Assembly: GCA_963666285.1 (NCBI GenBank)
Contig: OY762711.1
DNA length: 64,000 bases
Source: Sedimentisphaerales bacterium
Lineage (GTDB): Bacteria > Planctomycetota > Phycisphaerae > Sedimentisphaerales > SM23-30
Strand: one strand, 5' to 3'
Under the pieces are notes generated by a model. It was given only the letters and a program-made list of their open reading frames with translations. It did not search any database and was not told the DNA's origin. This document shows positions 17,921 through 26,285 of this stretch, one piece after another. Every line of letters begins with the position of its first letter. Position 1 is the stretch's first letter. Both the position numbers and the translations under genes were made by a program.

Positions 17921-20635
17921 TTATTCGATGGTTTCGCATAAAGATGAATCACTCCAGTCGCAATCAAGCCATTCAGAAAGTATAACTGCAAGATCAGCAA
18001 CGTCTACGATACAGTAACTATCGTTAGACCTTACAATATCATTGTCCGGATTAGCTAAACAGACTTCCGGGAGAGTCTCAATAGAACTAACCAAGGTACC
18101 ATAAGCAATAGGGCTAGTCTGGAACATTACTTTTCCTGACAGGTCATTACCAAACTCGTCTTCATGGTAAGGTACGCTAACAATTATTTCATCAATGTAC
18201 CCACAAACAAGATCTGGAGTATAATTATTAACAGTATAGGCTACTATTTTTAATCCATCACGAGCCGGGTCACCCACATCAAAGGTAAACAAAGCGGTAC
18301 TATATTTCCACTCTGTATCTGAATATATAGGAAGCCAATCAACTTTATCGCCAGCATAACCACCATCTGTTTGATGGAAATATCCAAGACGCAAAGAAGG
18401 AACTTCATCTGCAAAATCATCCTTCCATTTCACAGCAACATAAACCTGATCACCATCTTGAAGACTATCAACCTGAGCTAACATTATCTGTGCTGTATCC
18501 CAAGTACTGCTAGTAACTTTTAACAGCTTATTAGATGTGTCTTCAGGGTCAACGATATTTTCGACAACAGGAATCTGGTTTGGTTCATCCCAGGAAGAAT
18601 GCGGATATGTTTCCATTGCAGTTTTGCCGTCATCCCAGCCGTACTTATAAAATTTATAGAACATACTATTGGCATTTGGATCAGGAACTCCATAGCCATC
18701 TTCCATCCAGCTGTCAGCAACAACTGTAAAGTCTGCCATATCAACGGTACAATCACCTGTCAGATCGTTTTCGAGATAGCAAATAGGATCATTAGGTTCT
18801 TGAGGGAATGTAATAGTAGCACCCTCAGGCACCCAAAGTTCAAGGTCATCGACCCAACCATAGTCACCTTCGTTAGAGTACAACTTTGCATCAACAACAA
18901 GCGTATCCCTATCGTTTGCATCACCATCATCAAAAGTCCATTCGTGCCCTAACATAGTCCAGTCATCATCACACAATGTTAAATTGCCTTCAGCAGAAGC
19001 AACATTACTTCCATCTACTTCATAATGTCCCCAAAGTCTAACTCCTAGTCCTTCACTTTCACCTTTCTTGGCCATAATTCTGGCACGAACAATATCTCCG
19101 TCAGACAAACCAGAAATTTTTGCAAGATAAGCTTGTGAATTGTCATCACTCTTCAAAGTTGCCTTTAGTGAACTAAAACCAGAATTAAAATCATTTTTAT
19201 CATTTCTGGTTTCAATATTAGAACCTCTACCTACATCAATACCATTATTCTCCCAGCCATAAGAGGCATCCGGGTCAGTCCATTCCGTAAAATCAATAAC
19301 CGGCACATTCGGCTCAACACTAACACCGGTTCCAGGGAAAGTAATCGTTGCATACCCTGGGGCTGTAATATTTAGATCATCGGCATAGGAATATTCATCA
19401 GTTGCCCCATAACAGCGTATCTGCACATCTAAAGTTGTGCCTGAGGTCGTCCAGGTGAAACTTTGAGTACCCCAGCTGGCTGAGGTATAACCCTGACTTG
19501 GCCCACCCACGTCAGAATAGCCAGAAGCCCATAATCTAGTACCATAAGTAGTATTAGTTCCATGATATTGGAGCCTGACTGCGGCAGAAACCTGATCCCC
19601 TGGATTAAGGCCGGTCACACTGGCAGCTTTAATGTAAGCAGTACTACCAGAAGTTTTGGTCAACTTCACTGCTGACGATCCACTTGTTTTTTCTTCAGAG
19701 GTAAACTCAGATGTCACATTGCTATCAAATAAAGAAGGAGAAGCTCCGTCTTCCCAGCCATATGCCATTGCATTAAAGTCAGGGGCACTTCCTAGAGAAT
19801 AATAAACAGTAACAACACCGCCCATAACCAATTCTTCACCCGAAGCCGGATCCTGGCTCACAAAACCACCAACCGGAACATCATCACTATAAGCATCTGC
19901 TATAACTGCTGTCAAACCAGCTGACTCAATTGCAGACTGGGCAGCAGTCGAACTCATTCCAGCAACATCGGGAACAATAACCATTGTGGAATTTGGAGTT
20001 ACTTCTGAAAATGTTGTGGCAACAATCAAATTATCAATTGAAAGATCTCCAGTATAAGTTCTTTGCCTGATTGAAACACCGTCAATAGGATCAACTACAT
20101 AAGTATAGGTTGCAGAAATTGTATCACCGGTATCAACCACCGTAAGCGAAGAAATTTTATTAGCAAAATCAACACCAACTACAACACGGTACGTTGTATT
20201 GAAATCATACGTCTGGCTAGTAAAAGAAGCGTATGCCAAACTAGATGAATTATAATTTATCGCAAACTGGAACCCGGTATCTTTTGCAACAACATACAGG
20301 CGGCTTCTATAATAAGTACCGGAGCTTGGTTTATAATGGAAGAAGTATTCACCGGTATTGGCAGCTGAAACATTAATATCAAAACCAGCATAAATTTCAC
20401 CAGATGTCTGCTCGGTAAATGTTGCATAAACATCTTCAGTGTTACCATCAACAACAAATATTTTACCACCATCAACCTGCAGTTCTCCTACTGTAGTATC
20501 GACACTAGTGGAATTCCAAGCAGCATTATCAACCAAGCTGCCGTCAGGATAATTAAAATTATCATCAAGCAAAACATCAGCATTAACTGCAACACAAATT
20601 AACAGTACAAAAAATGCAAATAGTTTTTTCATCAT
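17921..20635 (-). CDS. Secreted multidomain protein: beta-sandwich, PASTA, three YGW(E/D) beta-sandwich repeats, two dockerin-like motifs
   Basis: Signal peptide; VPDVAGMS..SDDVPVG..SQDP (PASTA); YGWEDG/YGWENN/YGWDDG repeats; DLTGDCTVD..W and CIVDVADL..EWLDC. Confidence 0.7.
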   Translation of the reverse strand: MMKKLFAFFVLLICVAVNADVLLDDNFNYPDGSLVDNAAWNSTSVDTTVGELQVDGGKIFVVDGNTEDVYATFTEQTSGEIYAGFDINVSAANTGEYFFHYKPSSGTYYRSRLYVVAKDTGFQFAINYNSSSLAYASFTSQTYDFNTTYRVVVGVDFANKISSLTVVDTGDTISATYTYVVDPIDGVSIRQRTYTGDLSIDNLIVATTFSEVTPNSTMVIVPDVAGMSSTAAQSAIESAGLTAVIADAYSDDVPVGGFVSQDPASGEELVMGGVVTVYYSLGSAPDFNAMAYGWEDGASPSLFDSNVTSEFTSEEKTSGSSAVKLTKTSGSTAYIKAASVTGLNPGDQVSAAVRLQYHGTNTTYGTRLWASGYSDVGGPSQGYTSASWGTQSFTWTTSGTTLDVQIRCYGATDEYSYADDLNITAPGYATITFPGTGVSVEPNVPVIDFTEWTDPDASYGWENNGIDVGRGSNIETRNDKNDFNSGFSSLKATLKSDDNSQAYLAKISGLSDGDIVRARIMAKKGESEGLGVRLWGHYEVDGSNVASAEGNLTLCDDDWTMLGHEWTFDDGDANDRDTLVVDAKLYSNEGDYGWVDDLELWVPEGATITFPQEPNDPICYLENDLTGDCTVDMADFTVVADSWMEDGYGVPDPNANSMFYKFYKYGWDDGKTAMETYPHSSWDEPNQIPVVENIVDPEDTSNKLLKVTSSTWDTAQIMLAQVDSLQDGDQVYVAVKWKDDFADEVPSLRLGYFHQTDGGYAGDKVDWLPIYSDTEWKYSTALFTFDVGDPARDGLKIVAYTVNNYTPDLVCGYIDEIIVSVPYHEDEFGNDLSGKVMFQTSPIAYGTLVSSIETLPEVCLANPDNDIVRSNDSYCIVDVADLAVILSEWLDCDWSDSSLCETIE

Positions 20636-20663
20636 TACATTCTCCTAAGAATTAAGTGATAAA

Positions 20664-22838
20664 TTACATGCCCCAATTGTTTGCAATATAAGACAAATCA
20701 TACAAGTTTACAATAAAGTCGTTATTAAATTCGGCTGACTGCCAGCCGGTAGAATTTTGCATGTAGTTCTGGATATAGATCATGAGGTCTTCCATATTAA
20801 CGGCACCGTCAAAATTTATATCACCCATTTTGCATCCCATATGAGTTTCGACCAGTAATTCAAGATCGGCGGTATCAACCATACCTGAATTATCAAGATC
20901 GTATTTAGAGGCAGCAGTACCTATCGCATCGATAAGTAAATTGATATCATCAATATCAAGGTCATTATCGCCGTCGAAATCGTTTATCGCCGCATAACGA
21001 TAGTTCATACTAAAGTTGAAAGAGCCATTCTGCACACCTTGTGAATCACTCTGAATGGTAAGCTGCAGTGTCTTTTCACCGGCAGTATCAGAATTAAGCG
21101 ATAGAGAATGAACTAAAAATTCCTGAGCGTTAACTGTATAGGAACTTTCGACTCCGGCAATAACAGAACTGCCCTGGTCAAATACAGCGGAAGCAGTAAG
21201 TCCATATGACGGATTTTCGGTATATTCGCCCACAGCCATACCAACATATACAGACTGGTTCATGGCAATCTCGGCAATCTTCCAATCGTTCCAGTTTACG
21301 CCATCGGAAGAATACGAGCCGGTAATAAAATTACCGGAACGGGAAATTTTTAGCCAGACAGGAATAACTATCTCAGCGATATTACCATCTAATACCGCAG
21401 AATCGCCGGTTACCTGACGAGTTCGCCATTTAAGTCCGAAATCACGAGACTGATAGAGCCAGGCAAACTTAGAATTATCTTCGAGAGTTTCGCGAATCAT
21501 AAGACCGGCCTCAGCCGCTGGAGAATCACTTTGCAGTTGGGAAAGTCTAAGAGCCAGCTCACCATCATCAGCCAACTCACGATAGACATAGGTAAAGTTA
21601 TCGCTGGAACCAGAGATTTTACCTGAAGCAACAATAGAAACACTGGAAGGTGAATCAGCAAGGTTTACCGAACCATCAACAGGCGGCTGACCGATATCGG
21701 TATAAGACCAGTTACCTGGATCTTCGCCTGTGTTATTGCTCTCGAGGTTTGTCTTTATAGTATAGTCAAGTTCATCATCCAGGCTGTCAGCGGCAGTATT
21801 GCTGACTCTGAAGCTGAAATTATAACCGGGACATACAACCTTGCTATCCGGTAATTGCGACAGAACCGAAACATCCATAACGGCAGGCATCTGATATTCG
21901 GCAACAACCGGGATATGGTCAGAAGCGGTCATAAGAGCGTACAGCACGTTTGGTGCCGCACCACTACCGGTATTGATACTATCATCATAATCATGGGTGC
22001 CGTTATTGCCAAACCCTCTATAGGAATCGGTTATCATGGCAAACCCTTCTTCATCATTTAATTCCTCAGTAATAAACTGAAAATCAAACCGGTCGTCCAT
22101 ACCGCCGCTAATCATACCGTCAATTGAACGGCTTGACGGAGCCTGGGTATGCCAGCGTTTATAATATCTGCCGGACCATCCGCTGGACTCAAGACCAACA
22201 GGATCAAATGCCTGACCGTTTCCACTGGAAAGTAATTCGACAAATGCAGGCTCATCAGTATCATAAATATTAAAATCACCGGCATAGATAATACTGGCAT
22301 CGCCGAGCGAGTCGGCATCTTGTCTAACCAGTTTAATTGCCTCGTAACGTCTTGATTCATTGTCGCCACCGGAACTGGCCTTGAGATGCATTGTATAAAT
22401 ATAAAAGACTGCATCATCTCCGGAATAACCAACCGGCTGGAATTTATATCGAATAACATGCCGATCTACATTATTATCCCTTGGCACCAGGTACTGATCC
22501 AGCATGCGCACGGTATTATAATTGTAGACAGCGCCCATAGTACCACCGCTTCCACTTCCATTTATGGTACTGCGTCGATAGTCACATGATGGATTGAGCC
22601 TGTTTAGTATCTGTCGGACCTGTTCGGTAGTAGACTCCACTGAATCCTGCTCTTCCATGACGATAACATCAAGCGGTCGCTGGATGCCATCAACATTTTC
22701 ATTACACATCGCCTGCAGAACCGTATCAAGTCCGGTACGGATCTCTCCATTTGCTATATTATATGCAGCAATCCTGAGTGCTGCCGGGCATGGTAATGCC
22801 ACAAACAGGATCGCCAGTAATGTAATTCTCAGTTTCAA
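20664..22838 (-). CDS. Secreted endonuclease/exonuclease/phosphatase (EEP) family nuclease with ConA-like domain and dockerin-like repeats
   Basis: AAYNI, MEEQ, HLKAS, AGDFN, DDRFDFQ, SDHIPV; AGLMIRE beta-sandwich; DFDGDND/DINFDGAVN repeats; TTG start. Confidence 0.85.
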   Translation of the reverse strand: MKLRITLLAILFVALPCPAALRIAAYNIANGEIRTGLDTVLQAMCNENVDGIQRPLDVIVMEEQDSVESTTEQVRQILNRLNPSCDYRRSTINGSGSGGTMGAVYNYNTVRMLDQYLVPRDNNVDRHVIRYKFQPVGYSGDDAVFYIYTMHLKASSGGDNESRRYEAIKLVRQDADSLGDASIIYAGDFNIYDTDEPAFVELLSSGNGQAFDPVGLESSGWSGRYYKRWHTQAPSSRSIDGMISGGMDDRFDFQFITEELNDEEGFAMITDSYRGFGNNGTHDYDDSINTGSGAAPNVLYALMTASDHIPVVAEYQMPAVMDVSVLSQLPDSKVVCPGYNFSFRVSNTAADSLDDELDYTIKTNLESNNTGEDPGNWSYTDIGQPPVDGSVNLADSPSSVSIVASGKISGSSDNFTYVYRELADDGELALRLSQLQSDSPAAEAGLMIRETLEDNSKFAWLYQSRDFGLKWRTRQVTGDSAVLDGNIAEIVIPVWLKISRSGNFITGSYSSDGVNWNDWKIAEIAMNQSVYVGMAVGEYTENPSYGLTASAVFDQGSSVIAGVESSYTVNAQEFLVHSLSLNSDTAGEKTLQLTIQSDSQGVQNGSFNFSMNYRYAAINDFDGDNDLDIDDINLLIDAIGTAASKYDLDNSGMVDTADLELLVETHMGCKMGDINFDGAVNMEDLMIYIQNYMQNSTGWQSAEFNNDFIVNLYDLSYIANNWGM

Positions 22839-22871
22839 TTCTCTTCCTTCGCTGACGTAAAAATTTTTTTC

Positions 22872-23876
22872 TTATCTAATTCTAAAATTACTCTTTGCCT
22901 GAACCATAGGGTCTTTGGTGCTGTTACCATTAACAATAGTCGAACCTTTAGGCCAGTATCTATGAACATCCAACGATTCTTCAAAGGTACTGCTCTCGGC
23001 ATGACCGTCAAAATAAGTCAGATTCATCCTGTTGTTGCTATGTCTGAAAGCATATTTCTCTGTTCCTTCTTGCAGGGTTGCCTCCCAAACACCGGTACCG
23101 ACAGCCTGAACATCAATACGGAATGGATCACCGCCGCTGCTGGAAACAATCGGAGTGGCAGGACCATACATAGCATAATTACCGCCATCATTCTGGAAAT
23201 TTATTGCATTTAGAGATATACGCATATCAGCAGTACTCAGATACCTGCTGCCTTCCATCATAAAGACCTTTTCAGAAGGGCGCCCAACCTTATTAATTTT
23301 CGGAGCATAGTTGTCAGGCACCATACCATTTCCATATTCACTGTCAGTAACATATGGGCTGCCCTTAGAACTATTGGCACTATAAGTCAGAAAAGCCAGT
23401 GACGCACTATAGCTCACCTGTTTTACTGCCTGAACATCAGGAATCAAGGTCCCACCATATTCATAATCATAATATTCTCTGTTAGAAGGACAGCTGAAAT
23501 CGTGATTAGATAATTGGATAAATCTGTCTACGCGATTTTCGGGGAGAGATAGCATTCTTCCCATAAGAGGCGACATCCAGTCCATATTTTGAACTGGTGC
23601 CCTGGAAGAAGAATCCACGCTGGACAAATCTCCCCCTCCAATTTTCAATCCGCTGGTATTGGGGCCAGGGAGCCAATCTTCATTTTCACTGGTATACATC
23701 TGAAGAGCAGTTCCTGCCTGCTTGCAATTGCTCAGACATACAGTCATGCGTGCCATTTCCTTGGCCTTACCCAAAGCAGGCATGAGAATCGACACCAGTA
23801 ATGCGATAATGGAAATAACGACAAGAAGTTCAATAAGTGTAAATGCATGTTTACGTCGGATTTGTGCTTGTTTCAT
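22872..23876 (-). CDS. Prepilin-type N-terminal cleavage/methylation protein (DUF1559-like, H-X9-DG C-terminal motif)
   Basis: [26 protein letters not shown]+..[19 protein letters not shown]. Confidence 0.9.
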
Positions 23877-23888
23877 ATCTTTCTACCT

Positions 23889-24200
23889 GGTTGTTGCGGA
23901 TAGCTCAAGTATGAGTGTGGAGGCAAAACCTCACTTGATATGCGCAGGGAGTCCAACCCTGCACGGCTATGCTTTTAGCTCTCAATATCATATTACTGCA
24001 ATATGGCCCAAAGGCCTTCGGTAGAGACTACTCACCAGACTGAATCCCCATTCAGCGTAATCTCTACAAAACAAAAAACTTTCGTTATCAATGCCGCACT
24101 CACCTGGCAAAACAACGATTATTGTCATATCTCTTATTGCATACCAAGTCGAATAATCGACTTGTACGGCCACTAAAAGGCCTCTATAACGCAATCCACC
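23889..24200 (-). ncRNA. Candidate large structured RNA (multi-branch, possible pseudoknot)
   Basis: Closing helix plus about 8 internal stems; G-U wobbles in five stems work only on the minus strand; see findings. Confidence 0.65.
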
Positions 24201-24237
24201 TTTTCTTTGTAATTCTCTTTTCTTCTATTATGCTATT

Positions 24238-24276
24238 AAAACTGTGTGCGGCACGCCTTAAACGCACCACACACAA
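24238..24276 (-). terminator. Hairpin/terminator after PEP-CTERM gene
   Basis: UGUGUGUGGUGCGU-UUAAG-GCGUGCCGCACACA-GUUUUA. Confidence 0.65.
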
Positions 24277-24298
24277 TTTATATTCTTCTCAAAAATTA

Positions 24299-24910
24299 CT
24301 ACTTTCTTCTGCGAATCAGAGCCAGTGCACCAGCAGCAATCAATGACATTGTTGCAGGTTCAGGAACAGGTACACTAATAGTAGCATGATCTGGAGCTGT
24401 AATAGTCATGTCATCCACCCAGACTGTATCGCCAAGATCTGAATATGTACGAGCTTCAATTACCAAACCAGTTGCTTCCGGATCTGTGGGAGCATAATTC
24501 CATGTCCACTCAAGATAAGTCCAACCTGGACCATCTGAGTATGCACCATTACCACTAGCTGAACCGGCATATGCATCAATATCATTCAATTCATTGTAGT
24601 GAGCCCAGATACGGCCCTTTGGATCTTCATTTTCAGGAGTAGTATCATAGGCCCAGAAACCTACAGTTACCTGATCACCAACCTGAAGGCCTTCGATCCA
24701 TGCAACATAAGCCTGAGGTGTGCTAATACCACCATCAACAAGCTTAAGAGAAGCACTGCCGCTGTGAACATACTCAGAATCATTTGTAGCTGTAACAGGG
24801 TTATAGTTGCTCAGAATAGTACCACCATCTTCCCAGCCATAAGTAATAACTGCCGCATTCGCTGCAACTGCCATAGCTGCTACCATCATAATTGCAAAGA
24901 ATTTCTTCAT
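24299..24910 (-). CDS. PEP-CTERM surface protein with one YGWED beta-sandwich domain
   Basis: MKKFFA signal peptide after GGAG; C-terminal VPEPATMSLIAAGALALIRRRK. Confidence 0.9.
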   Translation of the reverse strand: MKKFFAIMMVAAMAVAANAAVITYGWEDGGTILSNYNPVTATNDSEYVHSGSASLKLVDGGISTPQAYVAWIEGLQVGDQVTVGFWAYDTTPENEDPKGRIWAHYNELNDIDAYAGSASGNGAYSDGPGWTYLEWTWNYAPTDPEATGLVIEARTYSDLGDTVWVDDMTITAPDHATISVPVPEPATMSLIAAGALALIRRRK

Positions 24911-25090
24911 TTTCGTTTTCTCCATTTTTTCATAAGTAATAATTTACTATATTCCAAGTGCCCTCTGCACTCTTTCTCACATTCATAAGTTGGGCAATTC
25001 AACAATAAGTTTTAAGTATTATATACTTAGAACTGTTAGCTTATTATTAAAGGTAAGCGAATAATGAAATTGCTCATCATTATATCTGTT

Positions 25091-25984
25091 CTAAAACTGC
25101 CTTTTATGCCAGCCAGGCAGTTCAACCTCTTTCGATGCCTCCCAGGCATAAAGGTAAAGTCCGGACGTCAGGCTCACGCCTCGTGAAAACATATTTCTGG
25201 CAGCATCCAGAACTTTATCATCTTCTATTGTTTGTTCTTCAAGCTGAGGAATCCCATTGTATAGACTGTATACATAAGGCACCTCTTCATTGCTTGCTTT
25301 GATAAATTCAAATACTGTCGGCAAGATCATACCGGGTATTTGAACAATTTTGATACTTGCAGGATCAGGTAATTTATCCTGTGGTATCTTTTCAATCAGG
25401 GCATCCAGCTTTAAGTGGATACCTTTCATTTCCTTGGCATCACTGCCATCCTTTATCAGGCCGTCATAATACTTCGTCGCATGCAGCGGCATCGCCGCAT
25501 CGCCGCAATAATGAGCCAGGATGCCGGCATAAACCAGGCATTTTGACTGTATATATTTATTATCAGGCCATTTGCGATATTCGGCAAAGGCAATAATTAA
25601 TCTTTGGGTATACTCTGTGAGAGAATAGGGAAGAGTCCCTACTTTGCCGGGCTTCAAGTCATGCTTAAAGCACCATTCGGCAAATTCATAGCGATCAAGC
25701 GGCAATTCATCGTCGGTGAAATATTCGAGGTCAAAGAAATGATCAGGATACTCAGCTCTTCGCAAAGCCTGGTCATTGAGCTTTTCCTTAAATATATCAG
25801 GGTCGATGGAACTGTGAGTCGCTTGTTGAATATTATTGGTAAAAAAAGAAGGTACCTTGCCTTGAATGACTTTTCCAGTCATAACAACAATTGATTCATG
25901 GCCGGCATTATGCCATCCCCCAAAAATAAATATACCACAAATCAAAACGGCAGCGCATCCGATGCGCACAAGTACATTTCTCAT
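25091..25984 (-). CDS. S1/P1 nuclease / Zn-dependent phospholipase C superfamily protein, secreted
   Basis: Mature N-terminus W-x3-GH (WHNAGH), DPD, HFFDLE, HYCGDAAMPLH, GIHLKLD. Confidence 0.8.
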   Translation of the reverse strand: MRNVLVRIGCAAVLICGIFIFGGWHNAGHESIVVMTGKVIQGKVPSFFTNNIQQATHSSIDPDIFKEKLNDQALRRAEYPDHFFDLEYFTDDELPLDRYEFAEWCFKHDLKPGKVGTLPYSLTEYTQRLIIAFAEYRKWPDNKYIQSKCLVYAGILAHYCGDAAMPLHATKYYDGLIKDGSDAKEMKGIHLKLDALIEKIPQDKLPDPASIKIVQIPGMILPTVFEFIKASNEEVPYVYSLYNGIPQLEEQTIEDDKVLDAARNMFSRGVSLTSGLYLYAWEASKEVELPGWHKRQF

Positions 25985-26285
25985 TCGGATCTCCAAATAC
26001 TATTCAATTGTCTATTTCACTCACAAAGTCCTTCTGGCAACCATTATATAGAGTTATAGTTTTAAAATCATTAAGATTATGTTATTTTTTAAAACATTGG
26101 CAAAAAGAATAGCTCGTATTTTTTTTCGTTTTATAATTCTTTTCTATATAGATATTTGCGATTTTAACAAAATTGTAATTTTGTATTTTTTTTCAAATAA
26201 TAAACTTTTTTTGCCTCTGCTTAGAAATACAAATTAACAAAATACTATAATAAATTAGAAAAACAATAGACATAAAGGAGATAAA

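Follow-up and report, generated by a model that had tools for sequence, protein, structure and literature searches.

A hairpin-rich orphan spacer element between PEP-CTERM and prepilin-like genes in a Sedimentisphaerales bacterium

We identified, in the spacer between a PEP-CTERM gene and a prepilin-like gene, a 312-nt hairpin-rich element (positions 23889 to 24200, minus strand, of the 64,000-nt stretch of DNA that we analysed, hereafter the window). The element is a real, above-background, orphan structured spacer. We read it tentatively, at a probability of about 0.4, as a species-specific expansion of a stem-loop spacer in a PEP-CTERM/pilin-like/phosphodiesterase operon, where it would lower the expression of the pilin and nuclease-like genes. 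The overall fold of the element is weakly supported.

The cassette, its spacer and known RNA families

The window sits on contig C1 of the source genome (G000; 6.35 Mb, 97% complete, 41% G+C) and holds 0 tRNAs. The minus strand carries, in order, an S1/P1-nuclease-like gene, a PEP-CTERM protein, a 422-nt spacer, a prepilin-like protein, a phosphodiesterase-like protein with a weak dockerin and a PASTA protein. The parts are as follows.

25091..25996, minus strand: upstream gene, weakly S1/P1-nuclease or Zn-phospholipase-like (Pfam E 0.04-0.05, sub-threshold); syntenic in relatives G002 and G003
24299..24925, minus strand: PEP-CTERM protein, 208 aa (PF07589, E 5e-6; TIGR02595)
24239..24279, minus strand: hairpin A, a strong stem-loop 3' of the PEP-CTERM stop (fold; z -9.25 in a 100-nt window)
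23889..24200, minus strand: hairpin-rich element, G+C 0.45, single-copy, homologue not found (folding, DNA and model searches)
24168..24182, minus strand: small GGCC/GGCC hairpin (p 0.82), with the first of two copies of the motif AGGCCUUU-N-GGCC-RUA
24145..24164, minus strand: 8-bp hairpin CAAGUCGA/UCGACUUG (p 0.94)
24082..24118, minus strand: candidate switch arm, predicted to fold either as a hairpin with loop GUGAGUG (24103-24097) or as an anti-RBS strand (24112-24093) pairing with 23899-23881
24021..24067, minus strand: 11-bp plus 7-bp helix with a 7-nt bulge, in both folds (p 0.87-0.99)
23989..24016, minus strand: second GGCC hairpin and weak CAUAUUG/UAAUAUG hairpin (fold); variants of metagenome run X4 lie here
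23942..23979, minus strand: GCUA/UAGC hairpin and 8-bp GUGCAGGG/CCCUGCGC hairpin, in both folds (p 0.89 and 0.99)
23905..23938, minus strand: bulged stem (p 0.02-0.08 when pseudoknot energy is left out); its bulge CACUCAU (23917-23911) would form one strand of the proposed pseudoknot
23874..23913, minus strand: last 40 nt of the spacer, with the 3' strand of the closing helix, the ribosome-binding site (RBS) AGGUAG and the ATG; resembles the post-hairpin stretch of G003
23988..24128, minus strand: 46-codon open frame within the element, relatives not found by protein search; probably no gene
22872..23876, minus strand: prepilin-like protein, 334 aa, with N-methylation motif (PF07963) and weak DUF1559 match (PF07596, E 0.008)
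20664..22838, minus strand: protein with N-terminal phosphodiesterase-like (EEP-type) domain (TDP2, E 0.012-0.025, weak) and weak dockerin (E 0.001)
17921..20635, minus strand: PASTA-domain protein (PF03793) with repeats of the PEP-CTERM protein's domain

The nuclease labels of the cassette genes derive from sub-threshold matches and from motifs; the motifs of the 20664..22838 protein look like those of the EEP type. The cassette (17921-25996), whose enzyme labels are weak matches, recurs in the same gene order in several relatives; it may serve to scavenge nucleic acids or phosphodiesters outside the cell. Planctomycetales records were among the relatives of its PEP-CTERM protein. The pilin belongs to a large family of 52 prepilin-like open reading frames (ORFs) on the same contig with near-identical N-termini, several of which have very A+T-rich spacers of 450-1100 nt; a pattern search placed a PEP-CTERM gene within 1.5 kb upstream of only one of the 52. 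There was no excess of promoters in the element region (7 sites, 6.2 expected).

The sequence-only reading that first described the element recognized in it no known riboswitch or ribozyme, and the Rfam searches agree: 0 matches at the gathering threshold in the window and 0 matches at E <= 10 to the Rfam 15 covariance models on 23880-24210. Two Rfam matches outside the element were judged to be chance. The comparison with MISL suggested in the same reading led nowhere, as MISL is described as an Rfam RNA in one report (10.1101/2024.02.24.581671), so the Rfam scans should have covered it, and the element has no Rfam match. A housekeeping RNA was rejected, RNase P, tmRNA, SRP and 6S RNAs all being found elsewhere in the genome above cut-off, as was a group I or II intron: no Rfam intron model matched the element, while the genome's group II intron was detected. 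Nor did the element, by eye, resemble the core motifs of these introns (P7 with J8/7; domain V). Likenesses to RNase P, T-box, hammerhead, c-di-AMP and lysine riboswitch, retron and SRP Alu domain were dropped after a check by eye. The TnpB family (PF07282) had 0 matches in the genome, and no TnpB or IscB gene, a feature of omega-RNAs and reRNAs, adjoins the element. Judged by titles and the starts of abstracts, the open-access literature describes no such RNA; subscription papers lie outside this scope.

Other elements of the genome were recorded along the way. The group II intron domains D1-D4 (RF02001, RF01998) lie at C1:3876200-3876700. A 1.6-kb insertion sequence occurs in four copies of >99% identity (C1:1589361-1590978 and near 5026669-5028287, 5746160-5747771 and 2394573-2396140). 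It encodes a 347-aa transposase that looks IS110-like, and its non-coding end of ~490 nt is structured and could contain a bridge RNA. Contigs C2, C3 and C4, of ~65 kb each, share sequence with the C1 region near 1004400.

Folding strength and two predicted folds

The element has on the minus strand a minimum free energy (MFE) of -108.9 kcal/mol (z -4.51), which 0 of 100 shuffles equalled, so that the proposed check against shuffles came out in its favor. A z of -4.5 or lower was reached by 7 of 181 random intergenic 312-nt windows of the genome, sampled from 1144 intergenic runs, and none of the 181 matched its energy excess. After G+C correction the element ranked 12th among 404 G+C-rich intergenic windows, ahead of the tmRNA and RNase P windows, in a ranking that used a window offset by 12 nt. 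Among 177 GC-matched windows, 6 had an MFE of -108 or below and 17 had local hairpin energy as high as the element's. These comparisons place it in about the top 3-10% of the genome's intergenic windows for folding. Its G+C content (0.45) also stands apart from that of 21 other long pilin-upstream windows (0.25-0.37), in none of which a similar fold was found; only one of these had z < -2.5, and it holds an apparent tRNA. No structural paralogue was found among 20 highly folded intergenic regions of the genome. Five single-copy, strongly folded intergenic regions without an Rfam match (L289, L290, L292, L293 and L294, near C1 positions 5387400, 5895800, 141800, 2152000 and 5682900) fold further below the G+C trend than the element does.

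The stems named in the sequence-only reading are all present where it placed them, as are the two copies of GGUGAGU (24104-24098 and 24036-24030) and the 12-nt distance from the 3' end of the element to the pilin ATG at 23876. Three helices are robust in the 312-nt fold (24164/24145, p 0.94; 24067/24021, p 0.99, with its inner stem at 0.97; 23964/23942, p 0.99) and are common to both alternative folds described below. The argument that G-U wobbles confined to the minus strand mark a selected RNA did not survive, as the plus strand has a z of -4.48 and the energy gap between the strands (minus less plus) is -18.3 kcal/mol versus -18.5 in 150 shuffles, a gap explained by the high G and U content of the minus strand. 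Pairs with p > 0.8 include 6 G-U on the minus strand versus 1 on the plus strand, 3 of the 6 being internal; calculated from base counts, the chance of such a split is ~0.2.

Complementary ends exist, as claimed, but the helix that would close them is at chance level: a partner at least equal to the end-closing duplex (-11.7 kcal/mol) occurs somewhere in 992 of 1000 shuffled bodies. When flanking sequence was included, five of six windows lost both the closing helix (p <= 0.01) and the hairpin that presents the GUGAGUG loop; the strand 24112-24093 instead paired with 23899-23881, leaving the pilin RBS paired at 0.82-0.98. Only the sixth, which stops at 23870, kept the closed fold of the earlier reading (closing helix, p 0.77). 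Constrained ensembles of a transcript ending at 23860 put the RBS-open and RBS-closed states at -114.7 and -114.9 kcal/mol. The anti-RBS duplex (-20.8 kcal/mol) was matched by 53 of 1000 shuffles, and the pilin ranks 5th of 48 pilin-like genes of the genome for predicted RBS pairing.

The UCAAGU/ACUUGA stem is present as sequence, yet it reaches a probability of only 0.02-0.08 when pseudoknot energy is left out. As for the 7-bp long-range pairing of GUGAGUG with CACUCAU, the complementary strands exist (6 Watson-Crick pairs and one G-U) but are borderline against controls: 16 of 500 loop-permuted controls had a pseudoknot of at least 7 bp, and the 0 of 200 full shuffles with 7 bp come from a control that is tilted because MFE loops were used. 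Holding both pseudoknot strands free in the closed fold costs ~3 kcal/mol (-108.8 versus -111.9 unconstrained) and the duplex is worth -7.7 kcal/mol before loop penalties; therefore the pseudoknot could tip the balance to the closed fold. The predictions are no more than suggestive of a pseudoknot, and the closed, multi-stem pseudoknotted fold is an unproven candidate, one of two predicted folds of near-equal energy.

Searches for relatives and the spacers of related cassettes

DNA and model searches found the element in a single copy in its own genome, contrary to a dispersed MITE or other repeat. The two covariance models (R1, 23905-24118; R2, 24068-24200) were each built from one sequence and are therefore insensitive, so distant relatives could be missed; the genome sets searched overlap. 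A BLAST-type DNA search of 60 relatives gave only 8 short weak matches, among which model R1 recovered a single 25-nt match (E 0.11), and DNA searches of 400 phylum genomes, phages and plasmids found no homologue. Model R1 found no second copy in the source genome and no homologue in 140 order, 24 family, 149 class and 149 phylum genomes. With model R2, the source genome, 149 order and 149 class genomes yielded one match, on a small gene in G003, which we rejected as chance: an equally good score was reached by 36 of 64645 random segments, and the gene's true orthologue lies elsewhere in the source genome. Pattern scans of GTDB, JGI metagenomes and IMG/VR gave, among the matches listed, only chance ones; model R1 was run on 100 of at least 146 and 100 of at least 120 of these loci, and BLAST and nhmmer alone on the rest. 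A pilin protein search of assembled genome contigs gave no confirmed locus. The element was not found in three congeners by DNA search or model R1. Found in one species only, it therefore looks more like a recent, species-specific spacer than like a conserved new RNA class.

The only independent copy came from metagenome run X4, as two 151-nt pieces (depth 3.5-4.5) with three substitutions and one insertion, differences that come from single low-depth contigs and may be errors. One change breaks a closing-helix pair, one removes a closing wobble and two leave a 5-bp second GGCC hairpin (contig depth 4.5). The pieces cover the spacer only and carry no evidence of expression. Runs X1 and X2 probably are the source, and run X3 is identical to the element over 24086-24200. 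A motif pattern chosen after seeing both copies, AGGCCTTT-N-GGCC-RTA, has just two occurrences in the 6.35-Mb genome, and both lie in the element (24002-24017 and 24165-24183, 166 nt apart). The repeated GGCC motif is present in 32 of 151 order genomes, about the control rate, and 29 GGCC-motif loci of order genomes gave no model match beyond the motif or a short hairpin. Aligned half against half, the element scored no better than 131 of 500 shuffles and therefore shows no clear duplication.

The sequence-only reading had tied the element to PEP-CTERM/pseudopilin cassettes and had let the idea depend on homologous spacers, none of which was found within the searches run. We collected 16 related spacers through relatives of the pilin (upstream regions of 27 of 29 loci) and of the PEP-CTERM protein (12 of 150 order genomes). 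Fourteen are only 67-287 nt long, and none tested carries the element: no match was seen in the 15 that were aligned, nor with model R1. The link between element and cassette is refuted within the genomes searched. Of the two long spacers, one (404 nt, z -3.7) and the other (421 nt, z 0.35), neither aligns with the element. The 404-nt spacer (L051, in G014), unrelated in sequence, is possibly a second, independent expansion.

Of the 16 spacers, 15 were folded; one or two strong hairpins dominate the folds of the short ones. The PEP-CTERM-to-pilin spacer measures 181-183 nt in all three congeners. The syntenic cassettes of G001, G002, G003, G017 and G756 have spacers of 151-287 nt dominated by one strong hairpin, and gene order is kept in G003, G017 and G756, and in G002 up to the contig end. 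Strong hairpins of unrelated sequence lie between the PEP-CTERM and pilin genes at L043, L252-L255, L260 and L053-L056 and, in the window, at 24239-24279; in the closely related cassettes that were folded, the stem-loop behind the PEP-CTERM gene is conserved in position, not in sequence. Hairpin A is the positional counterpart of the dominant hairpin in these spacers. Six close spacers show no alignable counterpart of the element's body (for the best, 29 of 300 shuffles were as good). Its last 40 nt match G003 (0 of 300 shuffles as good; 15 of 17 positions identical, 4 of 500) and, weakly, G002 (5 of 300). When long gaps were allowed, G001 and G002 aligned slightly better than shuffles did (4 of 200 and 5 of 200). 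The match to G003 makes an ancestral 3' strand of the closing helix probable, and this speaks against a clean insertion with inverted repeats at its borders.

Possible origin, role and likeness to known systems

We favor, with the reservation stated at the outset, a species-specific expansion of the stem-loop spacer. In the source genome, hairpin A (24279-24239) is followed by ~290 nt of extra hairpin-rich sequence and then by the probably ancestral 3' end, and the match to G003 together with the weak long-gap alignments to G001 and G002 fits growth in place. The operon would be read as one transcript, and hairpin A would protect or partly terminate the PEP-CTERM message. The added hairpins and the predicted anti-RBS helix (24112-24093/23899-23881) could then lower the expression of the pilin and downstream genes further, or, alternatively, shield the processed 5' end of those genes. 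The closed pseudoknotted fold would then be the other state, with the RBS open, and no conserved architecture. The mode of action would resemble that of intercistronic stem-loops in cellulosome operons, by which subunit ratios are set. One study (PMC4423207) reports that growing operon spacers acquire new stem-loops and that these set transcript ratios. The shortness of 14 of the 16 related spacers, with one or two dominant hairpins and preserved gene order, supports the expansion, as do the pairing of the RBS in five of six flanked windows, the near-equal open and closed ensembles and the lack of a promoter excess. Against it, the anti-RBS duplex is matched in 53 of 1000 shuffles and the RBS pairing ranks only 5th of 48, and an energy excess that 0 of 181 windows match is more structure than a damping spacer needs. 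Among the roles proposed earlier, the most probable is still that of an element acting in cis or in processing/stoichiometry; the tie to the cassette is not supported.

The step in G+C content and the unalignable body would fit equally a foreign structured element, be it a non-coding RNA gene without relatives or the remnant of a non-autonomous mobile element, that was inserted into the spacer of this lineage. We regard such an insertion as rather unlikely. The element is a G+C island in an A+T-rich spacer, absent from searches of three congeners, with AGGT flanking both of its loosely inverted ends; it folds further below the G+C trend than the tmRNA and RNase P windows, and it recurs, with 4 differences, in two pieces from an independent metagenome run. 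Yet it is single-copy, matches to its ends in the genome are scattered, with 2-3 mismatches, and no intergenic near-match to either end was seen beside a transposase (in contexts that are unannotated). It lacks similarity to the resident IS110-like elements and group II intron, the genome has no TnpB-family match, the 3' arm of the apparent inverted repeat is common to G003, and no donor was found in phages, plasmids, or among the matches listed from the IMG/VR and GTDB scans. Also unlikely is a functionless or nearly neutral cluster of hairpins that arose by local duplications or inversions and whose boundaries were picked because they pair. The equal z of both strands with a strand asymmetry as in shuffles, the end helix at chance level, the 17 of 177 GC-matched windows with equal local hairpin energy, the short internal repeats and the X4 change that breaks a closing-helix pair all point that way. 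Such a cluster does not account for a fold that 0 of 100 shuffles and, in energy excess, 0 of 181 intergenic windows attain; the half-against-half alignment (131 of 500) gives no clear duplication, and the second GGCC hairpin keeps a 5-bp stem despite its two X4 changes (one contig, depth 4.5).

Riboswitch classes are recognized by their conservation, and the failure to find a homologue is one reason why we consider improbable a regulated translational switch, riboswitch-like or protein-bound, in which a ligand would stabilize the closed fold and pseudoknot, hide the anti-RBS strand and open the pilin RBS. Such a reading would make the element a rare and undescribed RNA of 310 nt, a switch or an ornate non-coding RNA, with a pseudoknot that controls whether the RBS of a pilin-like/extracellular phosphodiesterase operon is open, possibly sensing released nucleotides or phosphate, with relatives too rare or diverged for single-sequence searches. 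It draws on two mutually exclusive folds of equal predicted energy that share the arm 24118-24082, on a pseudoknot duplex that could offset the difference between -108.8 and -111.9, and on an element that ends 12 nt before the ATG. The pseudoknot and anti-RBS helix are, however, equalled in 16 of 500 controls and 53 of 1000 shuffles, and relatives run the same cassette without the element. It is very improbable that the 46-codon frame represents a small gene, a pseudogene or a leader peptide: its ATG context resembles the pilin start (an 8-nt repeat, D2) and a weak model match fell on a small gene in G003, but the protein search returned only the window's own protein and the G003 match is chance (36 of 64645).

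If the element does no more than damp the genes behind it, it illustrates on a modest scale how an operon spacer gains structure in one lineage, and the damping reading directs attention to the positionally conserved stem-loop behind the PEP-CTERM gene of these cassettes. Were the two-fold switch true, which the present evidence does not favor, the element would count as a large RNA regulator outside the described classes and would offer a handle on what PEP-CTERM/DUF1559-type cassettes respond to.

Some translational riboswitches act through an anti-Shine-Dalgarno expression platform. The element is like them in that a predicted alternative helix covers the RBS and excludes the closed pseudoknotted fold; it is unlike them in having no recognized aptamer or found homologues, both of its features being borderline against controls. 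Its multi-stem fold and possible pseudoknot recall the large ornate RNAs (MISL, ROOL, GOLLD, OLE and HEARO), from which it differs in the lack of an Rfam match, the conservation not found and a position away from tRNAs; at ~310 nt it is also shorter than ROOL, for which one report gives an average of 581 nt (PMC5737381). Like the candidates of the GC-IGR pipeline, as its description presents them (PMC11109978), it is a long, G+C-rich structured spacer without an Rfam match in an A+T-rich intergenic background, but the motifs in that description rest on many representatives and covariation and the element has one representative. Unlike SRPS and cellulosome spacers, the spacer examined here has about ten hairpins over 310 nt, in one species, and a predicted long-range anti-RBS helix. 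It shares with them the SRPS feature of a stable stem-loop in the operon spacer behind the upstream gene, which both hairpin A and the element provide, and, as in those systems, the stem-loops lie behind a surface-protein gene and ahead of dockerin-like enzyme genes and vary in number among relatives.
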